Source: a virus (Duplodnaviria; Heunggongvirae; Uroviricota; Caudoviricetes). From it: a stretch of DNA of 61,778 nucleotides. Location of the stretch: IMG/VR virus record IMGVR_UViG_2778261381_000005. One strand, given 5' to 3'. Below are positions 5,652-54,863 of this stretch, one piece after another. The notes below the pieces were generated by a model. That model saw nothing but the letters and a program-made list of their open reading frames with translations. It made no database searches and was not told where the DNA came from. Both the position numbers and the translations under genes were made by a program. Within the stretch, counting starts at the first letter, position 1; the number at the start of each line of letters is the position of its first letter.

Positions 5652-5696
5652 ATGCAAACTGACTGCGGCACGTTCCGCAGTCATATTTCATAGTCG

Positions 5697-6231
5697 TCAC
5701 CGCTGACAGCATACACAATCAACTGCCGCTGATAGCATATCGAGAGTCTATCTCACCGCTCACAGCATACTTTACTCGATTTTTTACCGCTGACAGCATA
5801 CTTAAGACATTGCATGAATAATGTGTACCGGTATGGGTATAACCAGAACAAAATTACCGCTGGCAGCATACGAAGGTCTGACATATGCCATTAATTACCG
5901 CTGATAGCATATCCAAACAAAAATTCCTCAATAAAACACCGCTGACAGCATACGTTCTATCAGGGAGCAGCAGGCAATAAATACCTTTCACTACAAGTAA
6001 TCAGCGCAATGGGAATAGAATGTTAGTGAGCGCAAACCTATATGGAATGCACTCTTCGAGGTTAGTAACCACTGGGGAGGTATAAAAGAGCATTGAGTGG
6101 TGATAGATGATTTACCGCTCACAGCATACGTTTATCTCACTATACCGCTGGTAGCATATCTTTAACCGTTCACAGCATACTTTTCAGAAAAATAGCCGCT
6201 GATAGCATACATTTCACCGCTGACAGCATAT
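5697..6231. repeat. iteron array, about 12 copies of ~17-bp unit (C/T)ACCGCTGACAGCATAC and variants, on the 3' side of rep
   Basis: Direct repeats e.g. at 5697, 5786, 5855, 5896, 5937, 6113, 6143, 6164, 6193, 6215. Confidence 0.75.
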
Positions 6232-7325
6232 CAAAGCAGTTTGAGACTATTGGAAAGGATCTCAATCATCTTGATATTTTCAGGCGTCAAATTCTGCGAA
6301 AGTTCGGTTATCTTATTGATAATGTTCTGTTTGGCATCAATTTCCCCGGCTTTCTCATCTGGTTTTTTGGGTTCGATGTCTTCAGGTTTTGGCGGTGCGA
6401 CTTTGAGTTTTGGATTGCGGCTGTGAATCTGGATATAGATCGACCGCCCACGCTTAATCTCGCTGTATTCGAGATAGCCCAAATCTTGGAGAGCTTTTAA
6501 GCCGTTACGTATAGTCTGATTCTGCGAGCTGACATTCCTGCTACTCAAATTGAGTCGCGCACGCAATCGAGCAAGCGATACCGGCGCAGGCTTGGTTGGA
6601 AGACTTTCGATGAAGGTGTACAGAGCCTGTGCTGTTTCTTTGCGTGGTAGCTTATTGATAACCTTTAACTGCAAAAGAACCTTATGGTCAAAGCGATATA
6701 GTTCGGCCAGCTTCGGTTCTGCATAGAACACCACCGTATCTTTCTGCTCGTTGTAGTCCACGCTATTGATGAGGTGCACCATCAGAAGCGAGATCTTGTT
6801 AGAGCCGTCGACGTTCTTTTCTTCATACGTTCTCTGGAAAGACAGAGTTGTACGCATGATCTTCAAAAGACTGTTTGTAAGCCGGTCGCGGAGTGTTTTG
6901 CGGATCTGTGACGATGGATAGCCACAAAACTTCGCAAATTTCGTGATGCTTAACTCGACACGACCATTAGGTTCGCCGTATTCTGCCAGCGAACGCACAA
7001 CGCCCACCCACGTTTTGAAATCATGATCCATGTCCAGGCGAGGACCGGTTATCTTGATATCGGAATAGCCTTCAGAACGGGCTACTTCGAGCTGGACAAG
7101 CTCCTTTGAAGCATCGATCTCATTTGGCTTGTTACGTTTACTGTATTTTGTTCCCTTAAGCGTGGGGACGAACAACCCCAGTCGCATCAACGCAATTGGT
7201 TGGACTGTATTGTTGCTATTAGGGACAAGTTCCCCTGTGTACAATTCAAGGGAACCTTCTTCAAAGTTGTCGATGTTATCTTCTACTTCTTTGTTATTTT
7301 TACCTTTTTTATTTTTTGTGGACAT
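6231..7325 (-). CDS. plasmid-type replication initiator (iteron-binding Rep), tentative
   Basis: Flanked on both sides by iterons; RBS aaaggtg before MSTKNKK start; basic protein; ORF-track start at 7445 rejected because it runs into iterons. Confidence 0.55.
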   Translation of the reverse strand: MSTKNKKGKNNKEVEDNIDNFEEGSLELYTGELVPNSNNTVQPIALMRLGLFVPTLKGTKYSKRNKPNEIDASKELVQLEVARSEGYSDIKITGPRLDMDHDFKTWVGVVRSLAEYGEPNGRVELSITKFAKFCGYPSSQIRKTLRDRLTNSLLKIMRTTLSFQRTYEEKNVDGSNKISLLMVHLINSVDYNEQKDTVVFYAEPKLAELYRFDHKVLLQLKVINKLPRKETAQALYTFIESLPTKPAPVSLARLRARLNLSSRNVSSQNQTIRNGLKALQDLGYLEYSEIKRGRSIYIQIHSRNPKLKVAPPKPEDIEPKKPDEKAGEIDAKQNIINKITELSQNLTPENIKMIEILSNSLKLL

Positions 7326-7344
7326 GTGGACACCTTTGTCATTC

Positions 7345-7446
7345 AACCGCTGACAGCATACTTGATTTGCCGCTGACAGAATACCAAAAACAGTTGGCAG
7401 CATACGGTGAACCGCTGACAGACTATCAATTACCGCTGACAGCATA
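7345..7446. repeat. iteron array (5 copies) immediately upstream of rep start
   Basis: aaccgctgacagcatac, tgccgctgacagaatac, gttggcagcatac, aaccgctgacagactat, taccgctgacagcatac. Confidence 0.75.
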
Positions 7447-28684: not shown

Positions 28685-31600
28685 CTATATCTGCCCACCT
28701 ACTCCTTTGAACTTTTCAATAAACGTGACGATTTTCTGGAAAACGGTCTGTTTTTTCGTTTTATATTGCGGGTTTAACGGACTAAGTTTTGGTAATGTCT
28801 CGTTTAATTCTGTGCCATTTTCGGTGGCGTATTCGCGTTTTAAAGACGTGCGAATATAGCGTTTCGCCGCCTCTTCATTGAGATTTTCTTCTTTTATCAA
28901 TGCTTCTGCTTCACGTTGCTGTTCGCGTTGAGCAAACGTAAAGAATGCCTCAATGATACTGGCTTTGTCTGGTAAATCATCCAGGTTCGTTTGCTGAATA
29001 AAATCGACCACCAGGCCCTCTTTCGCCCGGTTCCCCAGGCTTGAACGAATTAAGCGTTTGACCTCTTCGATCATTTCGCCCTTGCCTTTATTTTGTCTGT
29101 TGTGTTCGAAAATCAGTCCAAGGATATAATCCAGGTTTATTTCCTGAGACTTCAGCAAATCGACCTCAAAAACTACGTCATCCCAGTCAGTGGTTGATTT
29201 CTCTTTTTTCTCAGCTTCTTTCTCACGGCGCTGCCAGTCGCGAATATCGTTATAGGCAGAACGATAATCCTGAATCTTGCGTTCAGCAGGGAGACGAATT
29301 GTTTGCAATTCAGCGAACTTTTCATCATCCACATAATGTTCTGCTTTGAATTTTTCTACCGCAACAGGATCGCTAAGATCGATTTGTTGCAGGGCTTTCA
29401 GCGTGGCAAATTCATCATAGTTTTGCAGGATGTTCTCGGCACGCAGGTATTCACCAAACAGTTTTACGAAGTCTTTCTTCTCTTTTTCACTTTCAATACT
29501 GGCAGGGTCAGGGAACCGTTGTTCCAGTTCTGAAACTACTGCCATAAAGCCGCGTTTAGCTTCACCAGTGGCAGCATCTGTAAAGCCTTCCATATACTCA
29601 GCATAACTCTTTTCTAACACCACATTTTTAGTATTTTTATCACCAAACAGCGTTATGGCATCAATGGTTGAGCGTTCCAGATCCCGAAAAGTGACGATGT
29701 TACCGAAGGTTTTAGTAGCGTCATAAATGCGGTTGGTACGGGAGAATGCCTGCATCAGGCCGTGAAAACGCAAGTTTTTATCGACGAATAGCGTGTTCAA
29801 TGTTGGAGCGTCGAAGCCGGTTAAAAACATCCCAACGACAATTAACAGATCGATATCCTGATTTTTAACCCGTTGGGCTAAATCACGATAGTAGTTCTGA
29901 AAACCGTTACTGTCGGTGCTGAAGTTAGTTTTAAAATAGCTGTTATACTCACGAATTGCAGCGTCAAGAAACTCTTTAGCACTGCTGTCCATTGCGCTGG
30001 TATCAAAAGTTTCATCGGAAATTTCACCAATGGCATTTTGTTCTTCATTGGCGGCAAAGGAGAAGATTGTTGCAACACGCAGCGGTTTATAGGTAGCCGA
30101 TTTATTAGCTGCTTCCTCTTGTAACCGTTTAAACGTCGCGTAATAGGCTTTCGCGGCATCCACGCTACTCACTGCCAGCATGGCATTAAAGCCTTTGGAA
30201 CCTGGGAAAGTACGGTGGGTCTTCTGGCGGAAGTTATTCAGAATATATTGCGTAATTTCCTGTATACGCATGGGATGAAGAAATGCCTGCTGATTTTCAG
30301 CCGCACTCAGTTTTTTCTCGTCGGTTTCTGTCTCTAAAGATTTAAACTGTGGCCGCACATCGTTGTAGTCCACCTTGAATTTGAGCACTTTTTCATCACG
30401 AATCGCATCGGTAATTACATACGAATGCAATTCACGACCAAATACGCTGGCGGTCGTTTCTGAGCCTAAGGCGTTTTCCGGGAAAATAGGTGTGCCGGTA
30501 AAACCAAACTGATAATAGCGTTTGAATTTCTTCTTCAGGTTTTTCTGCGCTTCTCCAAACTGGCTGCGGTGACATTCATCAAATATAAACACCACTTGCT
30601 GATTGTATACAGGCAGGTCGCTTTCTGCTTTCATCAGGTTATTAAGTTTCTGAATAGTGGTGACGATAATTTTGTTATCGTCCTTATCCAGATTGCGTTT
30701 AAGACCTGCGGTATTTTCCGAGCCGTTGACGCTGTCTGGCGAAAAACGCTTATATTCATTCATGGTCTGGTAATCGAGGTCTTTCCTGTCGACCACGAAG
30801 AAGACTTTATCAATAAAGTCCAGCTCTGTTGCCAGACGCGCGGCTTTAAAGCTGGTGAGGGTTTTACCTGAACCGGTAGTGTGCCAGATATACCCACCGC
30901 TTTCCGGTTTTGACCAGTTCTTCGCTGTAAAGGAACTCTTAATTTTCCACAGAATGCGCTCAGTGGCGGCAATCTGGTACGGTCGCATCACCAGTAGCGT
31001 TTGGCTAACATCGAATACGCTGTAGTTCACTAAGACATTAAGCAGGGTATGTTTCTGGAAAAAGGTGGCGGTAAAGTCTTTGAGGTCTTTAATCAGCGTG
31101 TTGTCTGATTTCGCCCAATTCATGGTGAAGTCAAAACTGTTTTTATCGCGCTTTGTCGTGTTGGCAAAGTAACGGGTATCGGTGCCGTTGGAAATGACAA
31201 ACAGTTGCAGATACTTAAACAGAGAATTTTCGCTGTTAAAACTCTCTTTGCTGTAACGATGTATCTGGTTAAAGGCCTCACGAATCGCCACGCCGCGCTT
31301 TTTCAGTTCGATTTGTACCAGCGGTAAGCCATTAACCAGGATCGTGACGTCATAACGGTTAGCATGAGAACCCGTCTGTTCAAACTGCTGGATAATCTGC
31401 ACCTTGTTGCGCATGAGATTCTTTTTATCTATCAAATAGATGTTCTCAAGACGCTCGTCATCAAAAATAAAGTCGCAAATATAGTCGATATGGATTTTAC
31501 GGGTCTTATCCAGGATGCCATCGCTCGGGTTATCCAGATACTGCTCCGTGAAACGCCGCCATTCGCTGTCATTAAACACCACACCATTGAGGTTCTGAAG

Positions 31601-31801
31601 CTGTTCCCGAACGTTGGCCAGCATCGCCGACTGAGATTTTACGGAAATAAATTCATAGCCCTGATTCCGCAGATCCTGAATCAGTTCACGTTCCAGGTCC
31701 GATTCGCTCTGGTAGCTGTCGCCTGTTTGCTCGGCTTTGATGTACTTATCAAGAACGATAAAGTTATTGGATTCAGCAATGGTGTGTGTCTGATGAGTCA
31801 T
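28685..31801 (-). CDS. hsdR: type I restriction enzyme R subunit (EcoR124-like, type IC)
   Basis: 1038 aa; helicase motifs TGSGKT, DECHRS, SRTNR; N-terminus resembles EcoR124I HsdR as I recall it. Confidence 0.9.
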
Positions 31802-31922
31802 AGCGCATCCTTTGTGCCGTCTGGCAAGGGCCGGAAGGGCTTTAAGGGCGACTTCCGGCGTGTAAAAAATAGTCTCTATATAGACCGGATGTTAAGGTGA
31901 TCCGGTCGGTAGCAATGGTCAA

Positions 31923-33178
<1,256 letters not shown>

Positions 33179-33182
<4 letters not shown>

Positions 33183-34741
33183 GCCTGTACCTCGCTACCT
33201 TCAATCTCAGCAACAATCGCATCAATATCTTTACGCAACTGGTCGATTTTGCTGACCGTGGTTTTCAGCTCAGCATTCAGCTCAGCGATATCGATAATTT
33301 CGCGAGTATCTTTCGCTTCCACATAGCTGCTCACCGACAGGTTATAGTCATTCGCGACAACAGTCTCAAACGCAACAGATTTCGCCAGATGAGCAACATC
33401 TTCCTTGCTGGCAAATACCTGCATAATCTGTTCGATATGAGCATCGGTCAGAATGTTGTTGTTAGTCTCTTTTTTGAACAGTTCGCTGGCATCAATAAAC
33501 TGAACTTTGGTATCCGTTTTATGTTTAGACAGCACCAGAATATTGACGGCAATAGTGGTGCCAAAGAACAGATTCGGTGCCAGTGAAATCACGGTTTCGA
33601 CATAGTTATTGTCGACCAGATACTGACGGATTTTCTGCTCCGCGCCGCCACGGTAAAAAATGCCTGGGAAGCAGACAATCGCAGCGCGACCTTTGGCCGA
33701 AAGATAGTTCAGCGCATGTAATACAAACGCAAAGTCAGCTTTGGATTTGGGGGCCAGAACGCCAGCCGGGGCAAAACGTTCATCGTTAATCAGCGTCGGG
33801 TCATCGCTGCCAATCCATTTCACCGAATACGGCGGGTTAGAAACGATGGCATCAAACGGTTTTTCATCTCTGAAGTGCGGCTCAGTCAGTGTATTACCCA
33901 GCTTGATATCAAACTTGTCGTAGTTGATGTTGTGCAAAAACATGTTCATACGCGCCAGGTTATAGGTCGTATGGTTGATTTCCTGACCAAAAAAACCTTC
34001 TTCGATGATATGGTCATCAAACTGTTTTTTCGCCTGCAACAACAGCGAACCGGAGCCTGCTGCCGGGTCGTAGATTTTGTTAACGTGGGTCTGCCCGTGC
34101 ATAGCCAGTTGTGCAATCAGCTTAGAGACGTGCTGCGGTGTAAAGAACTCGCCGCCGGACTTACCGGCATTCGCCGCATAGTTAGAAATCAGGAACTCAT
34201 AGGCGTCACCGAACAGGTCAATCTGATGTTCATGGAAGTCACCAAGTTTTAGCCCTTCAACCCCTTTCAGAACCGCAGCCAAGCGGGCATTTTTATCTTT
34301 AACGGTGTTACCCAGGCGGTTACTGGTGGTATCGAAATCAGCAAACAAACCTTTGATGTCAGCTTCTGAAGGATAACCGTAAGCAGAACTTTCGATAGCA
34401 ACGAAGATGCTGTTTAAATCTGCATTCAGTCTGTCATTAGTATTTGCTTTCGCAGCTACGTTGCAGAAAAGCTGACTGGGGTAGATGAAGTAGCCTTTAG
34501 TTTTGATGGCATCGTCTTTAATGTCATCAGTAATTACGCTGTCATCCAGTTTCGCATAACAGATACTGTCATCACCGGCTTCAATATAACTGGAAAAATT
34601 TTCGCTGATAAAACGGTAAAAAAGCGCGCCCAAAACGTACTGCTTAAAATCCCATCCATCGACTGAACCCCTGACATCGTTAGCAATTTGCCAGATCTGG
34701 CGATGAAGCTCTGCACGTTGTTGAATACTTGTCATTTTCAT
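33179..34741 (-). CDS. hsdM: type I restriction-modification methyltransferase subunit
   Basis: 520 aa; N6-adenine MTase motifs DPAAGSGS and NPPY; operon order hsdM-hsdS-hsdR. Confidence 0.9.
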
Positions 34742-35093
34742 CCACTTATTTCAGGTTTAAGTAATTGGATGTGATTCTACAGCAACTTGGATGCTTTAGC
34801 AGTTCGGACATTAGGTAACGAATGACCTAATTAGAGCTTTTTGGAAAAGCGGTATTGTCGGTGCGATTTTAGCTATGTCTGGGTGTGCGATGGTGCAATA
34901 CAATGACGGTGAAAAGGTTAGCATCCAGTTCGATGGCTGGTATTGGCTTGGATAGCCTGCCAAAAAACGCAGATAAAGCCTGTCAGCAATACGGAAAGTC
35001 TAAAGCTGTATATCTGCATAGCGCGAACGCTAACCCTCATCTTGCGCCTGGTACGGGTGTTCAGAATACCATCTGGAAATGTGAGCCTTAAAC

Positions 35094-35345
35094 ATGAGCA
35101 ACTGGAACATAGCAGCCAAAAGCCAGGAAGAAAGGAATAAAGTTAACGTTGACCTGGCTGCCAGGGGGGTTGCCTACAAAGAGCGATTGAACATACCCGT
35201 CATAGCGGAACAGGTAGCCCGTGAGCAACCTGAGAACCTGCGCACCTATTTCATGGAACGGCTACGGCACTACCGGCAGTTAAGCCTCCTGCTGCCAAAA
35301 GGAAACGATCCGGTATATCAGAAAGAAGATATAGCCAAAAAATAA
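35094..35345 (+). CDS. hypothetical protein
   Basis: ORF only; weak RBS. Confidence 0.3.
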
Positions 35346-35405
35346 CGCGCCACCAGACGAGCGCAAAGCATCGCGCTATTGCACACTTCAAGCATCTTTA
35401 ATGTA

Positions 35406-35425
35406 TACTGTATGGATAAACAGTA
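35406..35425 (+). promoter_or_regulatory. LexA (SOS) box
   Basis: TACTGTATGGATAAACAGTA fits CTGT-N8-ACAG; 18 nt upstream of umuD'-like ATG. Confidence 0.7.
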
Positions 35426-35443
35426 CTCTGAGGTGAAAACGCT

Positions 35444-35833
35444 ATGGGCTTCCCTTCTCCTGCGGCGGATTATGCTGAGAGCCGTATTTCTCTTGATCAG
35501 CAGATAATTAGACATCCTTCAGCGACCTACTTCATGAGGGCAGCTGATAGTCATCATCGTGAGGGAATATTACAGGGTGCATTGCTGGTGGTCGATTCCT
35601 CACTTACCCCGGTTGATGGTTCTCTGCTTGTATGCGCTCTGGATGGGGAATATCGCGTAAAAAGATACCGGAAGTACCCACGTCAGCATCTGGAGGATTT
35701 AAGAACCGGTAAGAAGGAAGCATTGCCAAAGGATGACGATGGATGCACGGGCAGCAATGCCGTGTTTGGTGTGATCACTCACATTATCAACGACGCAAGA
35801 AGTGGCGAGTTTGATGATTGTCCCGTGATGTAG
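35444..35833 (+). CDS. UmuD'-like protein (S24 LexA-family fold lacking the N-terminal arm)
   Basis: Starts M-GFPSPAADY, aligning from Gly25 of E. coli UmuD (recalled); SATYF, VFGVITHII conserved; in-frame stop 13 nt upstream. Confidence 0.6.
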   Translation: MGFPSPAADYAESRISLDQQIIRHPSATYFMRAADSHHREGILQGALLVVDSSLTPVDGSLLVCALDGEYRVKRYRKYPRQHLEDLRTGKKEALPKDDDGCTGSNAVFGVITHIINDARSGEFDDCPVM

Positions 35834-35845
35834 GAGAACTGATTA

Positions 35846-35869
35846 GGCGGTGCAATGCACCGCCTTTTA
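35846..35869 (+). terminator. rho-independent terminator
   Basis: GGCGGTGCA atg CACCGCC followed by TTTT. Confidence 0.6.
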
Positions 35870-36970
35870 TCACACTGCGCGGAATGCGATTTCGCCAGGT
35901 ATTACTTCACCTTGCCAATACATTTGGGCGGCAACGCGATCTGCGAGGTCACGATAAATAGCCGTAAATTCGCTATCTGGACGACTAATAACGGTTGGTG
36001 TTCCGTTATCCAGATCTTCACGAAGAGAGATATGAAGTGGCATTTGGCCTAACAACTGCGTGTTGTATTTCTCGGCCAGTTTCTGTGCGCCACCGGTGCC
36101 AAAAATTGGCTCGTGATGACCGCAGTTACTGCAAATATGCACACTCATGTTTTCGACGATACCCAGTACCGGCACTTCGACTTTTTCGAACATCACAATG
36201 CCTTTCTTCGCATCGATCAGCGCGATGTCTTGCGGCGTAGTTACCACAACCGCACCAGTTACAGGAATGTTCTGCGCCAGCGTCAACTGAATATCACCAG
36301 TGCCCGGCGGCATATCGAGAACGAGATAGTCCAGATCAGGCCATAGAGTTTCCTGCAACATCTGCATCAGCGCCTTGCTGGCCATCGGTCCACGCCACAC
36401 CATTGCATTGTCGTCGGTGACCAGATAACCAATAGAGTTGGTTGCCAGGCCATGAGACATGATAGGTGCCATGTGAGTACCGTCAGGTGAGGTTGGACGT
36501 TGGTTTTCCGCGCCCAGCATGGTTGGAATTGATGGACCATAGATATCGGCATCCAAAATACCAACTTTCGCACCTTCAGCAGCCAACGCCAGTGCCAGGT
36601 TTACCGCCGTGGAGGATTTACCCACGCCGCCCTTGCCTGAGCTGACGGCGATAATGTTCTTAACGCCATTAATGCCTGGTTGGTTTTTGACGCGCTTAAG
36701 CGTGGCAATGTTGTACGACAGCTTCCAGTCAATAGCCTTTGCGCCAGTGATACGGAGCAGATCACCACTACATTGCTCTTTCAGGTCTTCAAAAGGCTTA
36801 TTCCACACGAAAGGCATGATTAGTTCGACATGCAGTGTGTCATCCATCAACGCAACATGGTGTAACGCTTTAAGCGTAGTCAGGTTGTGTTTCAGGGTTG
36901 GGTGCTGAAAATTAGCCAGCGTACCGGCTACCATTGCTCTCAGGGCATCCGGCGATTTGGACTCGCTCAT
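35870..36970 (-). CDS. mrp: Mrp/ApbC Fe-S cluster carrier ATPase
   Basis: P-loop SGKGGVGKS, C-terminal CSNCGH; divergent from metG as in E. coli. Confidence 0.9.
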   Translation of the reverse strand: MSESKSPDALRAMVAGTLANFQHPTLKHNLTTLKALHHVALMDDTLHVELIMPFVWNKPFEDLKEQCSGDLLRITGAKAIDWKLSYNIATLKRVKNQPGINGVKNIIAVSSGKGGVGKSSTAVNLALALAAEGAKVGILDADIYGPSIPTMLGAENQRPTSPDGTHMAPIMSHGLATNSIGYLVTDDNAMVWRGPMASKALMQMLQETLWPDLDYLVLDMPPGTGDIQLTLAQNIPVTGAVVVTTPQDIALIDAKKGIVMFEKVEVPVLGIVENMSVHICSNCGHHEPIFGTGGAQKLAEKYNTQLLGQMPLHISLREDLDNGTPTVISRPDSEFTAIYRDLADRVAAQMYWQGEVIPGEIAFRAV

Positions 36971-37127
36971 CCCGTCTCCTTTATTTTAATTTGCGCAATT
37001 GTCGCCTTGTAGTGTACTCCAGCTACGACATTTAATCATTTATGAGAAATGCTGTTATCACATGGCAGACATAAGGCCATTTTGTTACTATCAAGCCCCT
37101 TTTCACTACAAAGAAGTAATGCCTACT

Positions 37128-39161
37128 ATGACCCAAGTCGCGAAGAAAATTCTGGTGACGTGCGCGCTGCCGTACGCTAACGGCTCAATCCACCTCGGCC
37201 ATATGCTGGAGCACATCCAGGCTGATGTCTGGGTTCGTTACCAGCGAATGCGCGGCCACGAGGTTAATTTCATCTGTGCCGACGATGCCCACGGTACGCC
37301 GATCATGCTGAAAGCACAGCAGCTTGGTATCACACCGGAGCAGATGATTGGCGAAATGAGTCAGGAACACCAGACTGATTTCGCAGGCTTTAACATCAGC
37401 TATGACAACTATCACTCGACGCACAGCGAAGAGAACCGCCAGCTGTCTGAGCTTATCTATACTCGCCTGAAAGAGAACGGTTTTATTAAAAACCGCACTA
37501 TCTCTCAGTTGTACGACCCGGAAAAAGGCATGTTCCTGCCGGATCGTTTTGTGAAAGGCACCTGCCCGAAATGTAAAGCGCCAGATCAATACGGCGATAA
37601 CTGTGAAGTATGCGGTGCGACTTACAGCCCGACTGAACTGATTGAACCGAAATCGGTGGTTTCTGGCGCTACCCCGGTAATGCGTGATTCCGAACACTTC
37701 TTCTTTGATCTGCCTTCTTTCAGCGAAATGTTGCAGGCATGGACCCGCAGCGGCGCGTTGCAGGAGCAGGTGGCGAACAAAATGCAGGAATGGTTTGAAT
37801 CCGGCCTGCAACAGTGGGATATCTCCCGAGATGCGCCTTACTTCGGTTTTGAAATTCCGAACGCGCCGGGCAAATATTTCTACGTCTGGCTGGACGCGCC
37901 GATTGGCTACATGGGTTCCTTCAAGAATCTGTGCGACAAGCGCGGCGATACCACCAGCTTCGATGAATACTGGAAGAAAGACTCCACCGCCGAGCTGTAC
38001 CACTTCATCGGTAAAGATATTGTTTACTTCCACAGCCTGTTCTGGCCTGCCATGCTGGAAGGCAGCAACTTCCGCAAGCCGACCAACCTGTTTGTTCACG
38101 GCTATGTGACGGTGAACGGCGCGAAGATGTCCAAGTCTCGCGGCACCTTTATTAAAGCCAGCACCTGGCTGAATCATTTTGACGCCGACAGCCTGCGTTA
38201 CTACTACACTGCGAAACTCTCTTCGCGCATTGATGATATCGATCTCAACCTGGAGGATTTCGTTCAGCGCGTGAATGCCGATATCGTGAACAAAGTGGTT
38301 AACCTGGCCTCCCGTAATGCAGGCTTTATCAACAAGCGTTTTGACGGCGTGCTGGCAAGCGAACTGGCTGACCCGCAACTGTACAAAACCTTTACTGATG
38401 CCGCTGAAGTGATTGGCGAAGCATGGGAAAGCCGCGAATTTGGTAAAGCTATCCGTGAAATCATGGCATTGGCTGACCTGGCTAACCGCTATGTCGATGA
38501 ACAGGCTCCGTGGGTGGTGGCGAAGCAGGAAGGACGCGATGCCGATCTGCAGGCGATTTGCTCTATGGGCATTAACCTGTTCCGCGTGCTGATGACGTAC
38601 CTGAAGCCGGTACTGCCGAAACTGACTGAACGTGCAGAAGCATTCCTGAATACAGAACTGACCTGGGATGGTATCCAGCAACCGCTGCTGGCGCACAAAG
38701 TTAATCCGTTCAAAGCACTGTATAACCGCATCGACATGAAGCAGGTTGAAGCACTGGTGGAAGCCTCTAAAGAAGAAGTGAAAGCCACTGCCGCGCCAGT
38801 TACTGGCCCGCTGGCAGACGATCCGATTCAGGAAACCATCACCTTTGATGACTTCGCCAAAGTTGACCTGCGCGTGGCGCTGATTGAAAACGCGGAGTTT
38901 GTTGAAGGCTCTGACAAACTGCTGCGTCTGACGCTGGATCTAGGTGGTGAAAAACGCAATGTCTTCTCAGGCATCCGTTCTGCTTATCCAGACCCACAGG
39001 CACTGATTGGTCGTCACACCATTATGGTGGCTAACCTGGCTCCGCGTAAAATGCGCTTCGGTATCTCCGAAGGTATGGTGATGGCTGCTGGCCCCGGTGG
39101 GAAAGATATCTTCCTGTTAAGCCCGGATGCTGGTGCTAAACCTGGCCACCAGGTTAAGTAA
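37128..39161 (+). CDS. metG: methionyl-tRNA synthetase
   Basis: HLGHMLEH (HIGH), KMSKS, zinc knuckle CPKC...CEVCG; ORF-track start at 36999 rejected in favour of ATG 37128 (MTQVAKKIL). Confidence 0.95.
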
Positions 39162-39313: not shown

Positions 39314-39622
39314 GTGGTTGAAATGTTGAACATTACCCAAGCCTACCAGGTGGCATTGATCAGCTCATCTCATACATCAGAGGAAGATGCTCGCCGATTC
39401 ATGATCGCAAGCAATGAGCTGGATTGGGTTTCGCAAATTGACGGCGGTTGTATTGTCCACGCCGGGTTACAGGATGATGTCTGGAAAGACGACTTGCGTC
39501 GATATGGTATATCCGAAGGCGCGATTGCTAACATTCAGAAAGTACTTGATGTAGGCTTTGACTCTGTACATTTTGATTGTGGTGCGCCGGTCGTTGAAGG
39601 GCTTGAGTGCTGGAACTGGTAA
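39314..39622 (+). CDS. hypothetical protein
   Basis: RBS ggag then ATG directly after motif 1. Confidence 0.5.
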   Translation: MVEMLNITQAYQVALISSSHTSEEDARRFMIASNELDWVSQIDGGCIVHAGLQDDVWKDDLRRYGISEGAIANIQKVLDVGFDSVHFDCGAPVVEGLECWNW

Positions 39623-39749
39623 ATCTGCAAACAGATTCAAACCGTTGATAATGGCGGTCACAATTTGATTCTTTTCTATAAGAATCCGTTGATCGCCACT
39701 ACTCCCCTTCCATACCCGCAATCACATCCTTAAATATCAATAAGTTATA

Positions 39750-40560
39750 GTTGTTTATACAATCAAGAAAACAACTGAATAACAGATCAACGAAACATCA
39801 ACGCTTTCATCCGATTTGGTCTAAAAAATTGACGTTTTCACACATCACTGCTTATACCCGTAATTCTACGCAGCAGACAGCGCCACAGCGTCCAATTTTC
39901 ACCACAGACGACCCAACACACTACCAACAAAAACACACGCTCAAAATCGTTCCCGTTGCGTTACACAACCATATAAACAACTTATTTTCAGGCATAACAA
40001 AACAACTAAATAACACACATGCCATTCCCCAAAACAACCAACCTCTTTATGGCAGGCTACCGAAAAGACCCACCTCTTCTCCCCAGGCTACCGGACAACC
40101 AACCTAACTTTCACAGGCAATCCGAAAACATTCATACGCGCGATACCCACGACACGCCATTACCCAAACAGCGAAGAAACACCTGAACCGCTGAAACCCC
40201 AACGAAGCCTGTAACCGCAAGGTTTCTCTCAATCCCAAAAGACACGAAACATAACAATCACGGGAAACGCCATTACCCAATACACGAATAACTACAAAAG
40301 CCTTTCACACACTCCAGACAAACAACTCAAACACAATAACGAAAGCAATCGCCCACCTGCCATTACTCCATACACGGAGAAGAACAATCACCAAAACGAC
40401 GAGAACACCCCATAGAAGAACCACCGCAAAACGAACGAAACCATTTACACCGACAGAGAGAACAACACGCCCAATTCACCAACAGAAATAGTCGCCGTAT
40501 AGAACATTCTGGAAGGAGTGAGCATTAACGCCTATAGAGAGGTTGAGACAGATAAAACAC
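39750..40560. repeat. non-coding region with strong C+A over G+T strand skew and dispersed repeats
   Basis: Repeats ACGCCATTACCCAA at 40154, 40269, 40355; CAGGCTACCG at 40040-40110; ORF-track ORFs here are low-complexity. Confidence 0.6.
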
Positions 40561-40679
40561 AACATGTATAGCGAAGAAGCCAGGTATGTATAAGTGGGGA
40601 GGGAAGGAGGGGTGTCGCCTCCTTTTTCGTATTTATTCAACTCCTGATTTTATCCCCCGTAACACCCCTACGGTCAGCC

Positions 40680-40860
40680 TTCGGTCCATACAGGGAAAAG
40701 GTTGCATCCCGCTACAGAAACGGCTGGGTTGCCTTCGGGGAACGGCTGGAGGTTTTCAGGGAAACGGTCGAGTTGCCTGTGTGGGTTTCGGGAAAAGGCT
40801 CGATGCCGGTTCAGGAACGGCGGCGTACCGGTATAGCGTGAGGGAGAGTTGCGGCTACCC
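40680..40860. repeat. degenerate tandem repeats with GGAAACGG core (about 6 copies, 22-30 bp period)
   Basis: ggaaaaggttgc, agaaacggctgg, ggaacggctgg, ggaaacggtcgag, ggaaaaggctcg, gaacggcggc. Confidence 0.55.
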
Positions 40861-41154
40861 ACCTGTAATGTGCGGGAAGAAGAGAGGCGCTCACGTGCAG
40901 GCGAACTTACTTACCGCTGGATTCCCTCTGAATGCCCAGCTACAGCGTAATTGTGCCAGACAGCCAACGGGTCACAATCGATTTCAGTAGGTTTTCGGGG
41001 AGATGATTATTCTGCCCACCAGCCACCTTCGGCCACTAAATCAGAATAATGTAAAAAGTGTTCTCGGTACTGAACCTGAAAACTCACTGCCAAAACCACA
41101 TTCACCGGAATAAAATCCTTTTTCGCCTGTGCGTTATTGCGATAATAACACCAT

Positions 41155-41176
41155 CAAGAAAACATGTTGTTTAAGG
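41155..41176 (+). promoter_or_regulatory. motif 1 palindrome with extended upstream box CGATAATnACACCAnCAAGAAAAC
   Basis: caagaaaacatgttgtttaagg; extended box shared with 43265 and 43755 copies. Confidence 0.45.
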
Positions 41177-41184
41177 ATTGCTTT

Positions 41185-41514
41185 ATGTTTGCACATATCG
41201 ACATCAACCAAATCAAGAAATTGACTCAAAAAGAGTTTGACCAGTTCTATGAGCTGGAAGGTTGGTCTTCCACTCTGATCAATTCGCGGTGGGTGCTTGA
41301 GCTGATGACTCGTGATGATGCACCTGCTTTGATGATTTGCGACATGGGTGAAGATGCTGACTTTATGGATATGAGCGAATTTTGTGTGGACACATACAAC
41401 CGCAGCCAGAAGTACTACTTCACATGCGATAGCGAAAATGACGTGATTTCTAAGGTCTATCTTCACCTCGTCCAGCATTGGGACGTTCAGGAGTTTCTTG
41501 AGGTATTCGCGTAA
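41185..41514 (+). CDS. hypothetical protein
   Basis: RBS aagga; ORF-track ATG at 41164 lies inside motif 1. Confidence 0.5.
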   Translation: MFAHIDINQIKKLTQKEFDQFYELEGWSSTLINSRWVLELMTRDDAPALMICDMGEDADFMDMSEFCVDTYNRSQKYYFTCDSENDVISKVYLHLVQHWDVQEFLEVFA

Positions 41515-42104: not shown

Positions 42105-42500
42105 ATGACCATTAAACGCGAAAAACTGACAGTTGATGTTTACTATGCCTCTGAAACCGCCGAAGGTAAGAATGTGGCAAAAATCACCGTTGTTACGTAC
42201 AACACCGAAACTGGCGCCGAAGTACAGGCCAGTACGATCGTGCGTAAAGGTGATGACTCCGACGGCGAGTACGCGACTCAATACCAGTCCATTCTCGATG
42301 CAACTGACCCGCTGCTGCTGAAAATCGAGAGCTACTTCCGCCAGGTTGATGAAGAGGTGTTTGAAACCATGATGAATATGGTTAACACCGTATTCGCCTC
42401 CAACCTGAATACCAACACTACCTGGATTGGTCAGTACGGCCTGCGCATTACCTCTGGCATTCCTGCCGACACCTTAATCCCTGAAAGCGTATTCGCTTAA
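42105..42500 (+). CDS. hypothetical protein
   Basis: RBS ggagag before ATG at 42105. Confidence 0.5.
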   Translation: MTIKREKLTVDVYYASETAEGKNVAKITVVTYNTETGAEVQASTIVRKGDDSDGEYATQYQSILDATDPLLLKIESYFRQVDEEVFETMMNMVNTVFASNLNTNTTWIGQYGLRITSGIPADTLIPESVFA

Positions 42501-43813: not shown

Positions 43814-44296
43814 ATGAATTTTATCGCTACTGTAAACGCACCCGCACATGGCAATATCGCTGTAACGTTCTCTGACATTGAAAAACGAGTACTTGGTGCA
43901 TGGCGCGACAATGAGACGGTAGAACTGTCAGCACAAGAAAAATGCATTATTGCACGCGACATCATTGGCAATCGTCGTTACTCGCGGGTATTTGAGAAAG
44001 CATATGTGGTAAATTCTGGATTCGGAACGTTCGTCTTTCCGGTGCGCTCCGGGCGATTCTGCCAGTCCAAGCTGATTGAGTTCGCTACGCAGATTTCTGT
44101 CTGGATTAAAACTCAATCGTCGTTCAAATTTTCCGACGATGAAGCAGTATCGCAGGGGATGCGGATCGCCAACAATGCGATTAAATGCAAAAACATTACG
44201 TATACCGCTGGCGTTGATACATGGAAACTGTTTTGCGCTAACTTTATGCTGAATGTATACGCAAGCAACCGCATCCACATCCTTGATGGCGTGTAA
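43814..44296 (+). CDS. hypothetical protein
   Basis: RBS aagga; motif 1 at 43785-43806. Confidence 0.55.
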   Translation: MNFIATVNAPAHGNIAVTFSDIEKRVLGAWRDNETVELSAQEKCIIARDIIGNRRYSRVFEKAYVVNSGFGTFVFPVRSGRFCQSKLIEFATQISVWIKTQSSFKFSDDEAVSQGMRIANNAIKCKNITYTAGVDTWKLFCANFMLNVYASNRIHILDGV

Positions 44297-44837
44297 CTGA
44301 GAAGAGGGCCAGAAACGGCCCTTTCTCTATAGCCACCAGCTGCCGCAGGGAAATTTTCAGAAACGGCGAGGAACGTATTCATGAGCCGACGGGAAACGGC
44401 CAGGATTTTTTCGGGAAACGGCTGCATTCGCCTTTATGTAGAAAAAAACATCGGGAAGCTGGTGGAATCCAACCAGCGGTTGTCGGACAGGCGAGCGGGG
44501 AAAATTATGATGACTTTCGTCGCCTGAGACATCCAGATTTCTTTCGTAGCATAATCACATACGTGATTAAGTGGTGTGATTATGTGAAAAATCACGCGCA
44601 CATAATACGCGAGCGGATACGGAACAAAACAAAATGCCGATCCGCGCCGACAAATAAACGCGGATCACATAGCAAGACTAAAAGCCAATGATTAACCATA
44701 CGCTATAGCGCAATATAACGCGTTTTAAGCGCGTTAATGTGTTAAGTAATGGGTATGTACTGGTAAGGATATAAAAGCGCGTTTATGGCGTTATTTTGGC
44801 GCTTATTTTTATGTTGTTGGAGTGAGTTAAAGACAAT

Positions 44838-46662: not shown

Positions 46663-47187
46663 TCAAAAAGGCAAAATTCGTTCAACCCAATCGAACAAAA
46701 CAACTATTTTTCTACCGTTCTCGACACGTAGTGTAACCTGACAAGCATCTGCGCCTGCTGACACCCCCTCAATTTCACGGCCATCCGCCATGTACACCCT
46801 TATAGATTTGTTTGCTTTGTAGGCTTGGTTGCAAATTGCAAAAAAATCGCGGCGTGATGGCCGATTATCGACATAATCAGGGTGAACTGTTAGTCGACCT
46901 TTGAAATCGTGAGCGATACTGTCAACCACACCTGATTCAATTGTACTAATGCGTTCAAGTGGGAGCCTTATACGATTTTCTTTGTCAAAAGGGGCTGGGC
47001 AAAGGTCAACTTTGTTACGAGATGGCATGAGGCCATAAACGTACATGCAAAACGCCTGGCCATCTTCGAGAGTGACCCTTACAGGAATTTGTTCTCTGCG
47101 CCAGAACATCAGTAGTTTTTCAACGTTAGTGTAATCTCGCGGCCAGAGTTCAGCTTGGATACCGTAGGTAATATCTTTGGTTGTCAT
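46663..47187 (-). CDS. hypothetical protein
   Basis: ATGA overlap with upstream lipoprotein stop; start trimmed from ORF-track 47265. Confidence 0.45.
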   Translation of the reverse strand: MTTKDITYGIQAELWPRDYTNVEKLLMFWRREQIPVRVTLEDGQAFCMYVYGLMPSRNKVDLCPAPFDKENRIRLPLERISTIESGVVDSIAHDFKGRLTVHPDYVDNRPSRRDFFAICNQAYKANKSIRVYMADGREIEGVSAGADACQVTLRVENGRKIVVLFDWVERILPF

Positions 47188-52974: not shown

Positions 52975-53607
52975 ATGACGGTCGAAAAAGACGAGGTAAA
53001 AACTCGCCTGACACCAGCGGAGTGGGCCGAAGCTGAAGCCAAATGGACGTCAGGCGAATATACACTCTCAAAGCTGGAGGAAGAGTACGGCATTCGTCGT
53101 GAAACACTCTCCAGACATTTCAAAAAGCGAGGATTAGAGAAAGGCGCGGACTCTGTTGGGAAGATGGTTCGTGAGTCTCTTAAATCTGACGCAGAGCTTC
53201 GCGCTAAAGCCCGTGCGGAAAAGATAGAAGAACGTCGTACACGTTATGACGGCTGGGCGTATGCGTTGGGGCAGATGGTGATGGTCGAAGTCACTACGGC
53301 CAAACGTGAGGGTAAGCCTTTAGGGGCGATTGAGGATTCTCTCAAGAGCTTACAGAGAGCCAGTAATACCCTTGCAAAATGCTTTGAAGTTTCGTCCAAA
53401 GCATTGGGCATGGATCATGCGGAAAATGACGAGGAAGAAATTCCGAACCTGGTATTTGGTGAGCTTACGCCTTCCCAGGTGGCGAAATTACGTCAGGAAG
53501 ACGACGAGCCTGAAATCATCGATGACGAATTGCTTGAGACGTTGGAAGAAGAAGCTCTAAGCGAATTTGATGCGACAGATGATGGAAGTGAAGGGGAGGA
53601 CGAATAA
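52975..53607 (+). CDS. terminase small subunit, tentative
   Basis: Directly upstream of terL; acidic C-terminal tail. Confidence 0.5.
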   Translation: MTVEKDEVKTRLTPAEWAEAEAKWTSGEYTLSKLEEEYGIRRETLSRHFKKRGLEKGADSVGKMVRESLKSDAELRAKARAEKIEERRTRYDGWAYALGQMVMVEVTTAKREGKPLGAIEDSLKSLQRASNTLAKCFEVSSKALGMDHAENDEEEIPNLVFGELTPSQVAKLRQEDDEPEIIDDELLETLEEEALSEFDATDDGSEGEDE

Positions 53608-54863
53608 TGGCAATCCCGTCCTCGCTCAGTCTTGTGCAACTGCATTCTGGACAGATGAAAGTCTTCCAGTCTCCGCATCGATTTAAAGTTGTTTGTGCTG
53701 GTCGACGCTGGGGAAAATCCCGGTTGTCGATCTCCACTATTATTCGTGCGGCGGCAAAGGAAAAAAAGCAAAGAGTCTGGTATGTCGCTCCTACTTACCA
53801 GATGGCTCGCCAGATTTTGTGGGACGATCTACAGGAAGTTCTGCCTCGTAAGTGGGTTAGGAAAAAGAACGACACCACGATGACAATCGTGTTGAAGAAC
53901 GGTTCGGAGATCGCCCTCAAAGGTGCTGATAAGCCTGACACTCTGCGCGGCGTAGCGTTGCATTTTGTAGTGCTTGATGAATTTCAGGATATGAAGGCTG
54001 ACACCTGGTACAAGGTGTTACGACCTACTCTTTCATCGACACGCGGCGGTGCACTGATCATTGGTACGCCAAAAGGCTTCTCGGAATTTCACAAACTGTG
54101 GACTATAGGCCAGAACGTAGAGCTGCAAAGAAAGGGACAGTGGAAGAGCTGGCAGTTTGTAACTGCCGATTCTCCGTTTGTACCTACGGCGGAAATTGAA
54201 GCTGCTAAGAACGATATGGACCCGAAATCGTTCGCTCAGGAGTACCTGGCGAGCTTTGAGAACATGTCCGGGCGCGTTTACTACCCGTTCGATCGTAACG
54301 TGCATGTAAAACCGCTTCAGTTCAACCCTCGGTTGCCTATATGGGTAGGGCAGGACTTCAACATTGACCCGATGTCTTCAGTAATTTTGCAACCTCAGCC
54401 AAATGGTGAGCTATGGGCAATTGATGAATTGGTGCTCTTTTCCTCTAACACGGCAGAGGTTTGTGATGAGCTTGAGAGACGCTTCTGGCGCTGGAAATCA
54501 CAGATAACGGTATTTCCAGATCCGGCAGGTGCTTATCGCCAACATGCTCGCGGGGAGTCTGACGTCGACATATTCAAAGAGAAGGGATTCTTACGTGTCG
54601 ATTATTCGAAAAAGCACCCGCCAATTGCGGATCGTGTTAATGCTGTTAACCGAATGCTGATGACCGCATCTGGAGATATCCGGCTGTATATCGATCCGAA
54701 GTGCAAGCATTTGATTGATTCACTGGAAAAAGTCATCTACAAGCCTGGAACACGAGATATGGATAAGACAGGTGGCATTGAGCATAGTGCAGACGCATTG
54801 GGCTATCCAGTACATCGTAGGTATCCAGTCAAAAACCGTGTTATTCTTGGTGGTTCTCGATAG
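53607..54863 (+). CDS. terL: terminase large subunit
   Basis: Walker A-like CAGRRWGKS, Walker B VVLDEFQDM; followed by portal gene. Confidence 0.8.
   Translation: MAIPSSLSLVQLHSGQMKVFQSPHRFKVVCAGRRWGKSRLSISTIIRAAAKEKKQRVWYVAPTYQMARQILWDDLQEVLPRKWVRKKNDTTMTIVLKNGSEIALKGADKPDTLRGVALHFVVLDEFQDMKADTWYKVLRPTLSSTRGGALIIGTPKGFSEFHKLWTIGQNVELQRKGQWKSWQFVTADSPFVPTAEIEAAKNDMDPKSFAQEYLASFENMSGRVYYPFDRNVHVKPLQFNPRLPIWVGQDFNIDPMSSVILQPQPNGELWAIDELVLFSSNTAEVCDELERRFWRWKSQITVFPDPAGAYRQHARGESDVDIFKEKGFLRVDYSKKHPPIADRVNAVNRMLMTASGDIRLYIDPKCKHLIDSLEKVIYKPGTRDMDKTGGIEHSADALGYPVHRRYPVKNRVILGGSR

Follow-up and report, generated by a model that had tools for sequence, protein, structure and literature searches.

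A conserved, non-coding A+C-rich locus in SSU5/pHCM2-like phage-plasmids and its possible role in phage-mode replication

Introduction

In Klebsiella, E. coli, Enterobacter and Salmonella, elements of the SSU5/pHCM2 type, which carry resistance genes, rank among the most frequent phage-plasmids. To our knowledge, the switch from plasmid to phage replication has not been explained in these elements and no phage-mode origin has been mapped in them. Here we analyze a 1.5-kb intergenic stretch, positions 39,623 to 41,184 of an SSU5/pHCM2-like phage-plasmid sequence of 61,778 nucleotides (IMG/VR record IMGVR_UViG_2778261381_000005), which we refer to as the window. The stretch combines an untranslated A+C-rich tract, a purine-run hairpin and an array of phased direct repeats. 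Our best reading is that it is a cis-acting locus that works in phage (lytic) mode and not in plasmid mode; more specifically, and only tentatively, we favor a repressor-controlled, transcription-activated phage-mode replication origin or control region.

The closest described systems fall into two groups. The first comprises iteron-bearing phage origins that need nearby transcription, such as lambda ori with pR and P1 oriL with P53, and origins whose repeats form two separate clusters, such as P4 ori/crr and SPP1 oriL/oriR. The locus resembles these in its direct repeats, phased at ~22 bp, and in a putatively repressible promoter aimed at the repeats; as in P4 and SPP1, a second cluster lies kilobases away, and as in P1, the locus is separate from the plasmid-mode origin. 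It differs from these iteron origins in that its function is putative, an initiator gene neither adjoins nor encloses it, a clear AT-rich unwinding element is missing, and a 0.65-kb A+C tract separates promoter and repeats. The second group comprises the hybrid-primed origins, ColE1 RNA II and T4 oriF/oriG, where UvsW removes the T4 hybrids. Here the likeness lies in the proposed long untranslated transcript that would run into a G-rich run, and in the RNase HI and UvsW-like helicase that the element encodes. However, ColE1 RNA II is highly structured whereas the tract RNA would be structure-free, and the tract is hybrid-neutral, the hybrid itself being only predicted.

Results

The locus is real, strongly conserved and non-coding. 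An earlier note on this DNA, made from the letters alone, had described a gap of about 1.5 kb between two small genes, and the gap holds up: the preceding gene, a small DUF5983 gene on the + strand (39314-39622), stops at 39622, the following small gene, also on the + strand, starts at 41185, and only short, unconserved open reading frames (ORFs) lie between them. Every gene flanking the locus is on the + strand. Most of the stretch is present in 214 E. coli plasmids, and NCBI's annotation pipeline PGAP leaves it without a gene in those of their records that were listed. The "hypothetical proteins" CYRAN_103 and CYRAN_104 of phage-plasmid Cyrano and 108 and 109 of SSU5 represent reading frames that are not conserved. 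Variable alignment columns are distributed over the three codon phases as 54/51/55, revealing no three-base periodicity, and indel lengths between lineages include 1, 2, 7, 10 and 11, which shift the frame. We therefore rejected a protein-coding gene on three grounds, the missing codon periodicity, the frameshifting indels, and ORFs that are short and unshared. No other long non-coding stretch was found in the window. It is previously undescribed; none of the papers found in a literature search describes the stretch.

A blastn search located the stretch in 839 plasmids, mostly from Klebsiella (431), Escherichia (224), Enterobacter (90) and Salmonella (49), with further carriers in Citrobacter, Cronobacter and Shigella; it also occurs in Kluyvera and in 43 IMG/VR contigs. 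The locus is 100% identical to ~110-kb E. coli plasmids (NZ_CP151018.1, CP091393.1), 97% identical to Cyrano and 69% identical to Salmonella phage SSU5. Homologues group into three main lineages, E. coli (which includes the window), SSU5/pHCM2 and Klebsiella, with 65-73% nucleotide identity over the stretch; this range spans the genera Escherichia, Salmonella, Klebsiella, Enterobacter, Citrobacter and Kluyvera. By comparison, the neighboring protein encoded at 42105-42500 (PHROGs phrog_2473) shares 52% of its amino acids with the SSU5/pHCM2 lineage and 36% with the Klebsiella lineage, so the non-coding stretch is better conserved than that gene. This comparison and the wide distribution support selective constraint, in addition to the non-coding status that the earlier note had described. 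A motif scan for more distant homologues in viral contigs and in one genome per species returned the same family only, plus Kluyvera, and an N15-like Klebsiella plasmid with a homologue of the neighboring gene has no such tract.

Conservation is patchy, with near-invariant islands that abut unalignable segments. The 80-87% identity at 39638-39700 is followed by an unalignable segment (39701-39760, 38%), by 75-80% at 39761-39865 and by 57-93% across the tract; 40501-40590 is again unalignable, the hairpin block reaches 75-83% and the repeat array 56-71%. At the 3' end, 40851-41133 is variable or replaced, and 41134-41175 is 81-88% identical in all lineages. In the SSU5/pHCM2 lineage the 3' part (window 40860-41130) is swapped for a ~300-bp segment bearing an opposite-strand 80-aa gene, SSU5_110, which is called by three different annotations. 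In the Salmonella plasmid pN16S089-2 (L013, about 2400-2650), a ~200-bp insertion sits in the tract straight after the promoter/palindrome module, and in this lineage it encodes a 56-aa ORF in + orientation. Finally, the first 460 bp of the locus, containing the 5' block, the promoter block and the start of the tract, occur as an isolated fragment of 68% identity (L004 6001-6463) that adjoins insertion sequence (IS) elements in large non-phage Klebsiella plasmids (a 207-kb IncFIB/HI1B plasmid of K. pneumoniae and similar records).

The top-strand skew is also real, but the earlier description of 39750-40560 as almost devoid of G and T was overstated: the segment contains 39.1% A, 30.5% C, 13.7% G and 16.8% T. 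The peak 600-nt window holds 73.7% A+C against a mean of 49.7% (standard deviation 3.2) in the window, an excess of ~7.5 standard deviations. On the whole 112.6-kb plasmid, the best 400-nt window reaches 74.8% A+C and the runner-up 61%, which makes the tract unique; over 640 nt of it, C amounts to 33% and G to 13%, a C/G ratio of ~2.6. All lineages retain the skew (64-72% A+C), and the tract between the bracketing repeats is 709-972 nt long in 40 distinct homologues. Since A does not pair with C, a strand made of the two can hardly fold, and persistence of the skew despite sequence divergence points to selection acting on one strand in its single-stranded form. A/C differences are near saturation level, so that the substitution spectrum does not discriminate between selection and mutation bias. 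The predicted folding energy of the + strand tract RNA is -0.16 kcal/nt (z = -1.8; - strand, z = +1.7). Stable RNA structure is unsupported on either strand, and consensus folding yields small local stems only; no helical or other periodicity was detected in the tract.

All three repeat families reported earlier are present at the positions given (Table 1). Within the tract, the 31-nt units are conserved in the SSU5 and Klebsiella lineages in 2-3 copies. The dispersed repeat occurs 3-5 times per element, and its core GCCATTAC is near-invariant across copies and genera; in addition to the variant, the tract carries three exact copies of this core, and the whole window seven versus 1.45 expected.

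Searches for known RNA classes did not account for the tract. Rfam gave nothing at gathering scores in the whole window, with one sub-threshold chance match (E = 2.1) in the stretch, and a tRNA search found none. A CsrA sponge, prompted by the CsrA-consensus-like AUACACGGA, was rejected on GGA counts (z = -0.5, 1.5 and -0.3 in three lineages), and an Hfq sponge or distal-face ligand on the lack of enrichment of ARN and AAnAAnAA (z between -0.9 and 1.2). The YC motif of Rho likewise shows no enrichment beyond composition. P4-type immunity pairing of the purine run with CCUCUUCC repeats is no better than in shuffles (z = -1.0 to +0.7), and an antisense or sponge role for the element's own transcripts was discarded because the best complementarities, of 12-16 nt, score 24-26 bits versus 24-32 bits for shuffled queries. 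We also rejected a type III toxin-antitoxin RNA array: there are only three 31-nt units, no gene follows them, and no PADLOC match is nearby. The tract does have the make-up seen in Rho utilization (rut) sites, at least ~80 nt of untranslated, unstructured sequence with C well above G.

We used published RNA sequencing values for LF82/Cyrano (table S1, given as log2(FPKM+5), where FPKM is fragments per kilobase per million; PMC9928086). CYRAN_103, which covers the first 250 nt of the tract, has a value of 2.32, equal to 0 FPKM, in overnight LB medium and a maximum of 4.27 (<15 FPKM) over all conditions, like late genes (PMC9928086). The upstream gene CYRAN_102 ranges from 5.6 to 9.2 and the downstream gene CYRAN_105 reaches up to 7.8 (PMC9928086). 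Thus, the locus is silent in lysogens, and since CYRAN_105 is expressed while the tract is silent, this gene is served by a promoter of its own, and the tract is more than a leader for it. In Y. pestis pFra/pMT1, a relative that is maintained as a plasmid, the tract and the first array are lost, beside IS1541; the deletion (L070 14210-15927) removes the equivalent of about 13.1-43.3 kb of the window and fuses the small genes after the second array to an AAA-ATPase block. In one E. coli blood isolate, IS1 lies within the tract near 40365. The loss and the insertion show that the locus is not needed for plasmid maintenance, which fits a role in phage growth.

The 5' portion of the locus carries candidate control elements (Table 1). 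RNAalifold consensus folding recovers the 9-bp stem of the 5' block, which exists in 37 sequence variants with a lineage-dependent inner stem and flanks; in Ecl411 the block is only 56% identical, its left part being replaced. In the adjacent regulatory block, a promoter weight-matrix scan places a rightward site in 9 of the 11 homologues and a leftward site, with its -10 element near 39772, in 10 of the 11, the latter being absent from the window itself; a stricter promoter consensus scan calls neither. The 8-bp inverted repeat that brackets the tract reads CTTATACC...GGTATAAG in the SSU5 lineage and CTTATATC...GATATAAG in Klebsiella, where both arms are altered, with L047 as a G.U intermediate. 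This change is a single compensatory event, as compatible with a long-range stem as with a pair of sites for the same protein.

Inside the tract lies a copy of a promoter/palindrome module that otherwise precedes many small + strand genes across the genome. The internal copy can be aligned to the modules of eight genes; these modules have the layout CCTTTT..., a GATAAT-type -10, ACACC, the palindrome AAGAAAACAA-NN-TTGTTT, a ribosome-binding site and ATG. In the internal copy the -10-like element (TTATAT/TATATT) is degenerate in the window, and the palindrome reads AAACAACTTATTTT in the window and AAACAAGTTGTTTT in the SSU5 lineage. The copy is present in 38 of the 40 distinct homologues, 116-117 nt from the left bracketing repeat wherever that repeat is found. 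Across the window the palindrome AAAACAA-NN-TTGTTT occurs at ~11 sites versus 0.5 expected, usually preceded by AAG, and at most + strand sites it has a GATAAT-type -10 before it and a small gene's ribosome-binding site after it. It resembles a dispersed operator or 5' untranslated region (UTR) hairpin of one regulator, comparable to the scattered C1 operators of P1.

The tract is followed by a purine-run hairpin, which a terminator scan calls as an intrinsic terminator (40601-40628; hairpin plus U-run) in the window lineage. Twenty variants retain the hairpin with many G.U pairs and one GC/AU exchange, and its pairing level of 81% is weakly above that of slid-partner controls (62-74%); these statistics are weak because purine and pyrimidine runs pair in any register. 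The G.U pairs can form on the + strand only. By nearest-neighbor energies, no other 30-nt window of the 61.8 kb is as prone to RNA:DNA hybrid formation with + strand RNA as the purine run at 40582-40611; among 600-nt windows, the one starting at 40371 ranks first.

To the right of the hairpin, six copies of GGAAACGG lie between 40693 and 40821. The E. coli and SSU5 lineages have the same spacing but divergent spacers. Iteron origins are recognized by at least three direct repeats phased at about two helical turns, and the array has this arrangement; its repeats are probably protein-binding iterons. They are not RepA iterons, a candidate we rejected since RepA carries 15 copies of the unrelated ACCGCTGACAGCATA. 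SSU5 and Y. pestis pFra both retain the second array, which marks the start of a 1.1-kb intergenic stretch closed by two back-to-back terminators; no further cluster of these repeats was found in the window.

The setting of the locus was examined by annotation and sequence matches, which also identify the element type. Phage-plasmid traits are a RepB/RepA-type replication gene together with genes for tail, capsid and terminase. For replication and nucleotide metabolism the element has enzymes of its own, namely a DnaB-like helicase, primase, Pol III alpha, RNase HI, ligase, NrdAB and thymidylate synthase, in addition to the UvsW-like helicase. Of the RepA iterons, 11 lie downstream of repA (5693-6230) and four overlap its 5' end (7340-7446); this plasmid origin is 33 kb from the locus. 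The earlier remark that such tracts are unusual in compact phage genomes therefore needs a qualifier, the element being a phage-plasmid with a plasmid origin elsewhere. Cargo on the element includes metG, apbC and a type I restriction system. Comparison of homologous plasmids shows that the genes left of the locus vary by lineage, making 39638 the edge of the conserved backbone and the left edge of the locus a cargo insertion hotspot. The terminase genes (52975-54863) lie at a distance of 11.8 kb; T4-type terminase families match the large subunit, and no Nu1-like match was obtained for the small subunit. In the 61.8 kb, Chi (GCTGGTGG) is present 16 times, in both orientations, versus 1.4 expected and a maximum of 7 in 100 shuffles.

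Table 1. Positions of features in and around the locus (window coordinates unless another record is named).
Feature	Position	Strand	Details
Conserved 5' block, left edge of backbone	39638-39700		80-87% identity in all lineages except Ecl411
Direct GTTGAY sites CCGTTGAT	39642-39649, 39686-39693		44 bp apart
9-bp inverted repeat	39652-39660 (TGGCGGTCA), 39690-39698 (TGATCGCCA)		encloses palindromic core TTCTATAAGAA
Conserved regulatory block	39763-39860	+	near-invariant in 11 homologues
AAGAAAACAA in regulatory block	39765-39774
Two TCAACG sites	39787-39792, 39798-39803		orientation opposite to 5' block
Candidate rightward promoter	TTGACG 39829-39834, TATACC 39853-39858	+	A-run, 18-nt spacer; weak -10
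Bracketing 8-bp inverted repeat	left arm 39851-39858 (CTTATACC), right arm 40587-40594		flanks A+C tract
A+C-rich tract, untranslated	39860-40560	+	~0.65 kb, about 70-74% A+C
Internal promoter/palindrome module copy	39950-39995	+	palindrome 39975-39988, then CAGG, without start codon
Tandem 31-nt units (three)	40029-40120	+	ACCCACCTCTT..CCCAGGCTACCG; includes CAGGCTACCG repeats
Dispersed repeat GCCATTACYCMATACACGGAGAAGAAC	40156-40387	+	copies at 40156, 40269, 40359; variant at 40021
Right bracketing arm and purine-run hairpin	40587-40628	+	arm TGTATAAG; purine run GGGGAGGGAAGGAGGGG pairing with CCTCCTTTTT; hairpin then U-run
Array of six direct repeats (GGAAACGG array)	40693-40835		core GGAAAMGGCTGG; spacing 23-22-21-31-23 bp
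Chi site GCTGGTGG	41016-41023	-	kept in lineages sharing this 3' segment
Promoter/operator module of next gene	41087-41184	+	CTGCCA-18-TAAAAT 41087-41116; GATAAT 41141-41146; palindrome AAAACATGTTGTTT 41159-41172; ribosome-binding site AAGGA; ATG 41185
Second array GGGAAACGGC, four copies	44310-44421		directly after gene 43814-44296, 3.5 kb downstream of first array
FljA-family gene	46663-47187	-	Pfam PF03614, E = 2.5e-84
Module palindrome sites	4102, 25763, 26492, 39245, 39296, 41159, 41643, 43295, 43780	+
Module palindrome sites	42559, 52935	-
Chi examples	43627, 44458	+
Chi examples	41016, 43148, 44333	-
Plasmid-mode replicon	5693-7446		RepB/RepA-type gene 6231-7445 (- strand); 15 iterons ACCGCTGACAGCATA
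Cargo block upstream of locus	28685-39161		type I restriction-modification, Pol III theta, S24 peptidase, apbC, full-length methionyl-tRNA synthetase (metG)
SSU5_110-type gene	L002 5409-5651	-	equivalents in L013, L014

Discussion

The features described above, which follow one another in a fixed order, can be assembled into a model of a possible phage-mode origin. When repression is lifted, host RNA polymerase would transcribe the tract rightward into an untranslated, structure-free RNA. The rightward direction is suggested by the orientation of the flanking genes and of the internal module, by the orientation of the ORF inserted in Salmonella, and by the G.U-dependent hairpin with its U-run. 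Transcription would end at the purine run beside the repeats or form an RNA:DNA hybrid there, and the phased repeats would bind a phage protein. Together, promoter, RNA, purine run and repeats could thus make up a transcription-activated origin, with the second array 3.5 kb downstream as an auxiliary site. Since the element supplies replication enzymes itself, among them RNase HI and a UvsW-like helicase, it also requires its own origin.

Several observations weigh against this model, each mechanistic step of which we infer. A clear AT-rich unwinding element is not found beside the repeats: the 36 nt to the left of the array are 72% A+T in the window lineage and ~58% in SSU5. On reading the sequence, no DnaA box is evident, the nearest DnaA-like 9-mer, TTATCCCCC, having two mismatches, and the sole IHF-like site falls in an unconserved segment. 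No initiator gene is adjacent, and the neighboring genes have no Pfam, PADLOC or PDB relatives and belong to PHROGs families of unknown function. The best candidate promoters have a weak -10, and promoter predictions alone are weak. Cumulative GC skew gives no origin signal and tracks gene orientation. The tract itself is thermodynamically neutral for RNA:DNA hybrid formation, and in the SSU5 lineage the hairpin is retained but the U-run is lost. Finally, an origin has no obvious need for 0.65 kb of A+C or for two conserved internal repeat families.

In the main rival reading, which we regard as doubtful, the RNA itself is the product. The tract would then be the gene for a stand-alone ~0.65-kb lytic-phase RNA that acts as a single-stranded platform or sink for an RNA-binding protein, with host Rho or the element's core tandem-Sm FljA-family protein as candidate partners and the adjoining array as a separate DNA site. 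A and C do not pair, the skew is kept through divergence, and the + strand RNA folds weakly. Conservation of GCCAUUAC...ACACGGAGAAGAAC (3-5 copies) and of the 31-nt unit (2-3 copies) between genera calls for sequence-specific recognition. The tract has its own promoter module and a terminator hairpin, and the downstream gene, expressed from its own promoter while the tract is silent, does not depend on it as a leader. Yet the terminator is not conserved as such in the SSU5 lineage, the expression data come from lysogens only, and none of the motifs GGA, ARN, AAnAAnAA and YC is enriched beyond composition.

Both candidate partners have merits. Rho prefers C-rich, G-poor, unstructured RNA and is, given the C/G ratio of the tract, the natural host candidate on composition. 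The FljA-family gene is core in the SSU5 supergroup (831 plasmids, including those of Klebsiella and Y. pestis pMT1/pFra), even in non-flagellate Klebsiella, and its product is 77-80% identical in amino-acid sequence between lineages. An AlphaFold model of the protein (pLDDT confidence score 83.6) has two tandem Sm domains that resemble Hfq, and the top Foldseek matches are all Hfq. The known target of FljA is the fliC 5'UTR; here, the target is probably an RNA of the element itself rather than fliC. However, the similarity of the fliC 5'UTR to the tract is limited to a 9-mer and does not exceed background, and pFra retains the FljA-family gene although the tract is lost. The FljA-family protein is a lead, and its link to the tract is hypothetical.

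A stronger form of this idea, which we regard as more doubtful still, is that the tract specifies a new kind of phage long non-coding RNA (ncRNA), ~0.65 kb long, made in the lytic phase only, selected against all structure and serving as a multivalent platform or decoy for an RNA-binding protein. Such an RNA would carry 3-5 and 2-3 copies of the two conserved motifs, again with Rho or the tandem-Hfq-fold protein as candidates; if it titrates Rho, phage-wide antitermination would result. Protein-sponge RNAs (CsrB/RsmZ for CsrA, CrcZ for Hfq) are likewise non-coding and carry multiple copies of short motifs, but the GGA and A-rich motifs that define such RNAs show no enrichment in the tract, which is silent in lysogens. 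The large RNAs in Rfam (OLE, ROOL, GOLLD and others) share its size class and location on mobile elements, but OLE, ROOL and GOLLD are highly structured, whereas the tract has no Rfam match and almost no folding potential.

It is unlikely that the tract is instead a very long zone for Rho loading (rut), serving to insulate or attenuate transcription and to shield the array and the early genes from untranslated transcription that enters from lysogen-expressed cargo genes or leaky promoters. The untranslated, unstructured, C-rich and G-poor tract sits exactly at the border between variable cargo and conserved backbone, and CYRAN_102 has log2(FPKM+5) values of 6-9 while the tract is at the floor. 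Transcription in lysogens, however, already stops before the tract, with CYRAN_103 near zero. Known rut sites and Rho-dependent attenuators, such as lambda tR1 and those of long 5' leaders, are also unstructured and untranslated with C far above G, but rut sites span ~80-100 nt; the tract is ~7-8 times longer than needed. Neither its conserved length of 650-770 nt nor its conserved repeated motifs are explained, and U is depleted besides G, which is not a Rho requirement.

The earlier note had offered four functions for the stretch, of which a lytic origin and an ncRNA locus are both live, whereas a packaging site and a terminal-repeat boundary are unsupported. That the arrays are small-terminase recognition sites of a pac- or cos-type packaging signal is very improbable. 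Their repeats are phased and direct, and the array core GGAAACG resembles, as a lead only, the lambda cosB R sites (CGTTTCC). T4-type terminases, however, often pair with headful packaging from a site near the small-subunit gene, and here the terminase genes, with a T4-type large subunit and no Nu1-like small subunit, are distant. In addition, no phage record starts or ends at the stretch, and pFra, a non-phage plasmid, keeps the second array. Least probable of all is decayed, functionless sequence whose skew arose as a side effect of mutation bias: an IS1 insertion in the tract is tolerated by one plasmid, pFra does without it and module-like remnants lie inside, but a similar length is kept in the 839 plasmids from at least six genera, sharp near-invariant islands stand next to unalignable segments, conservation exceeds that of the neighboring gene, and a skew of ~7.5 standard deviations, unique in 112 kb, is far past known transcription- or replication-linked mutation bias.

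We thus return to the phage-mode origin or control region as the tentatively preferred reading. As the sole long non-coding stretch of the window, conserved and silent in lysogens, the locus is the obvious place to seek the phage-mode origin or the switch to phage replication in this widespread family. Should the A+C tract instead function as an RNA, it would exemplify a rare situation in which selection disfavors RNA structure altogether, and it might be a decoy for Rho or an Hfq-like protein.

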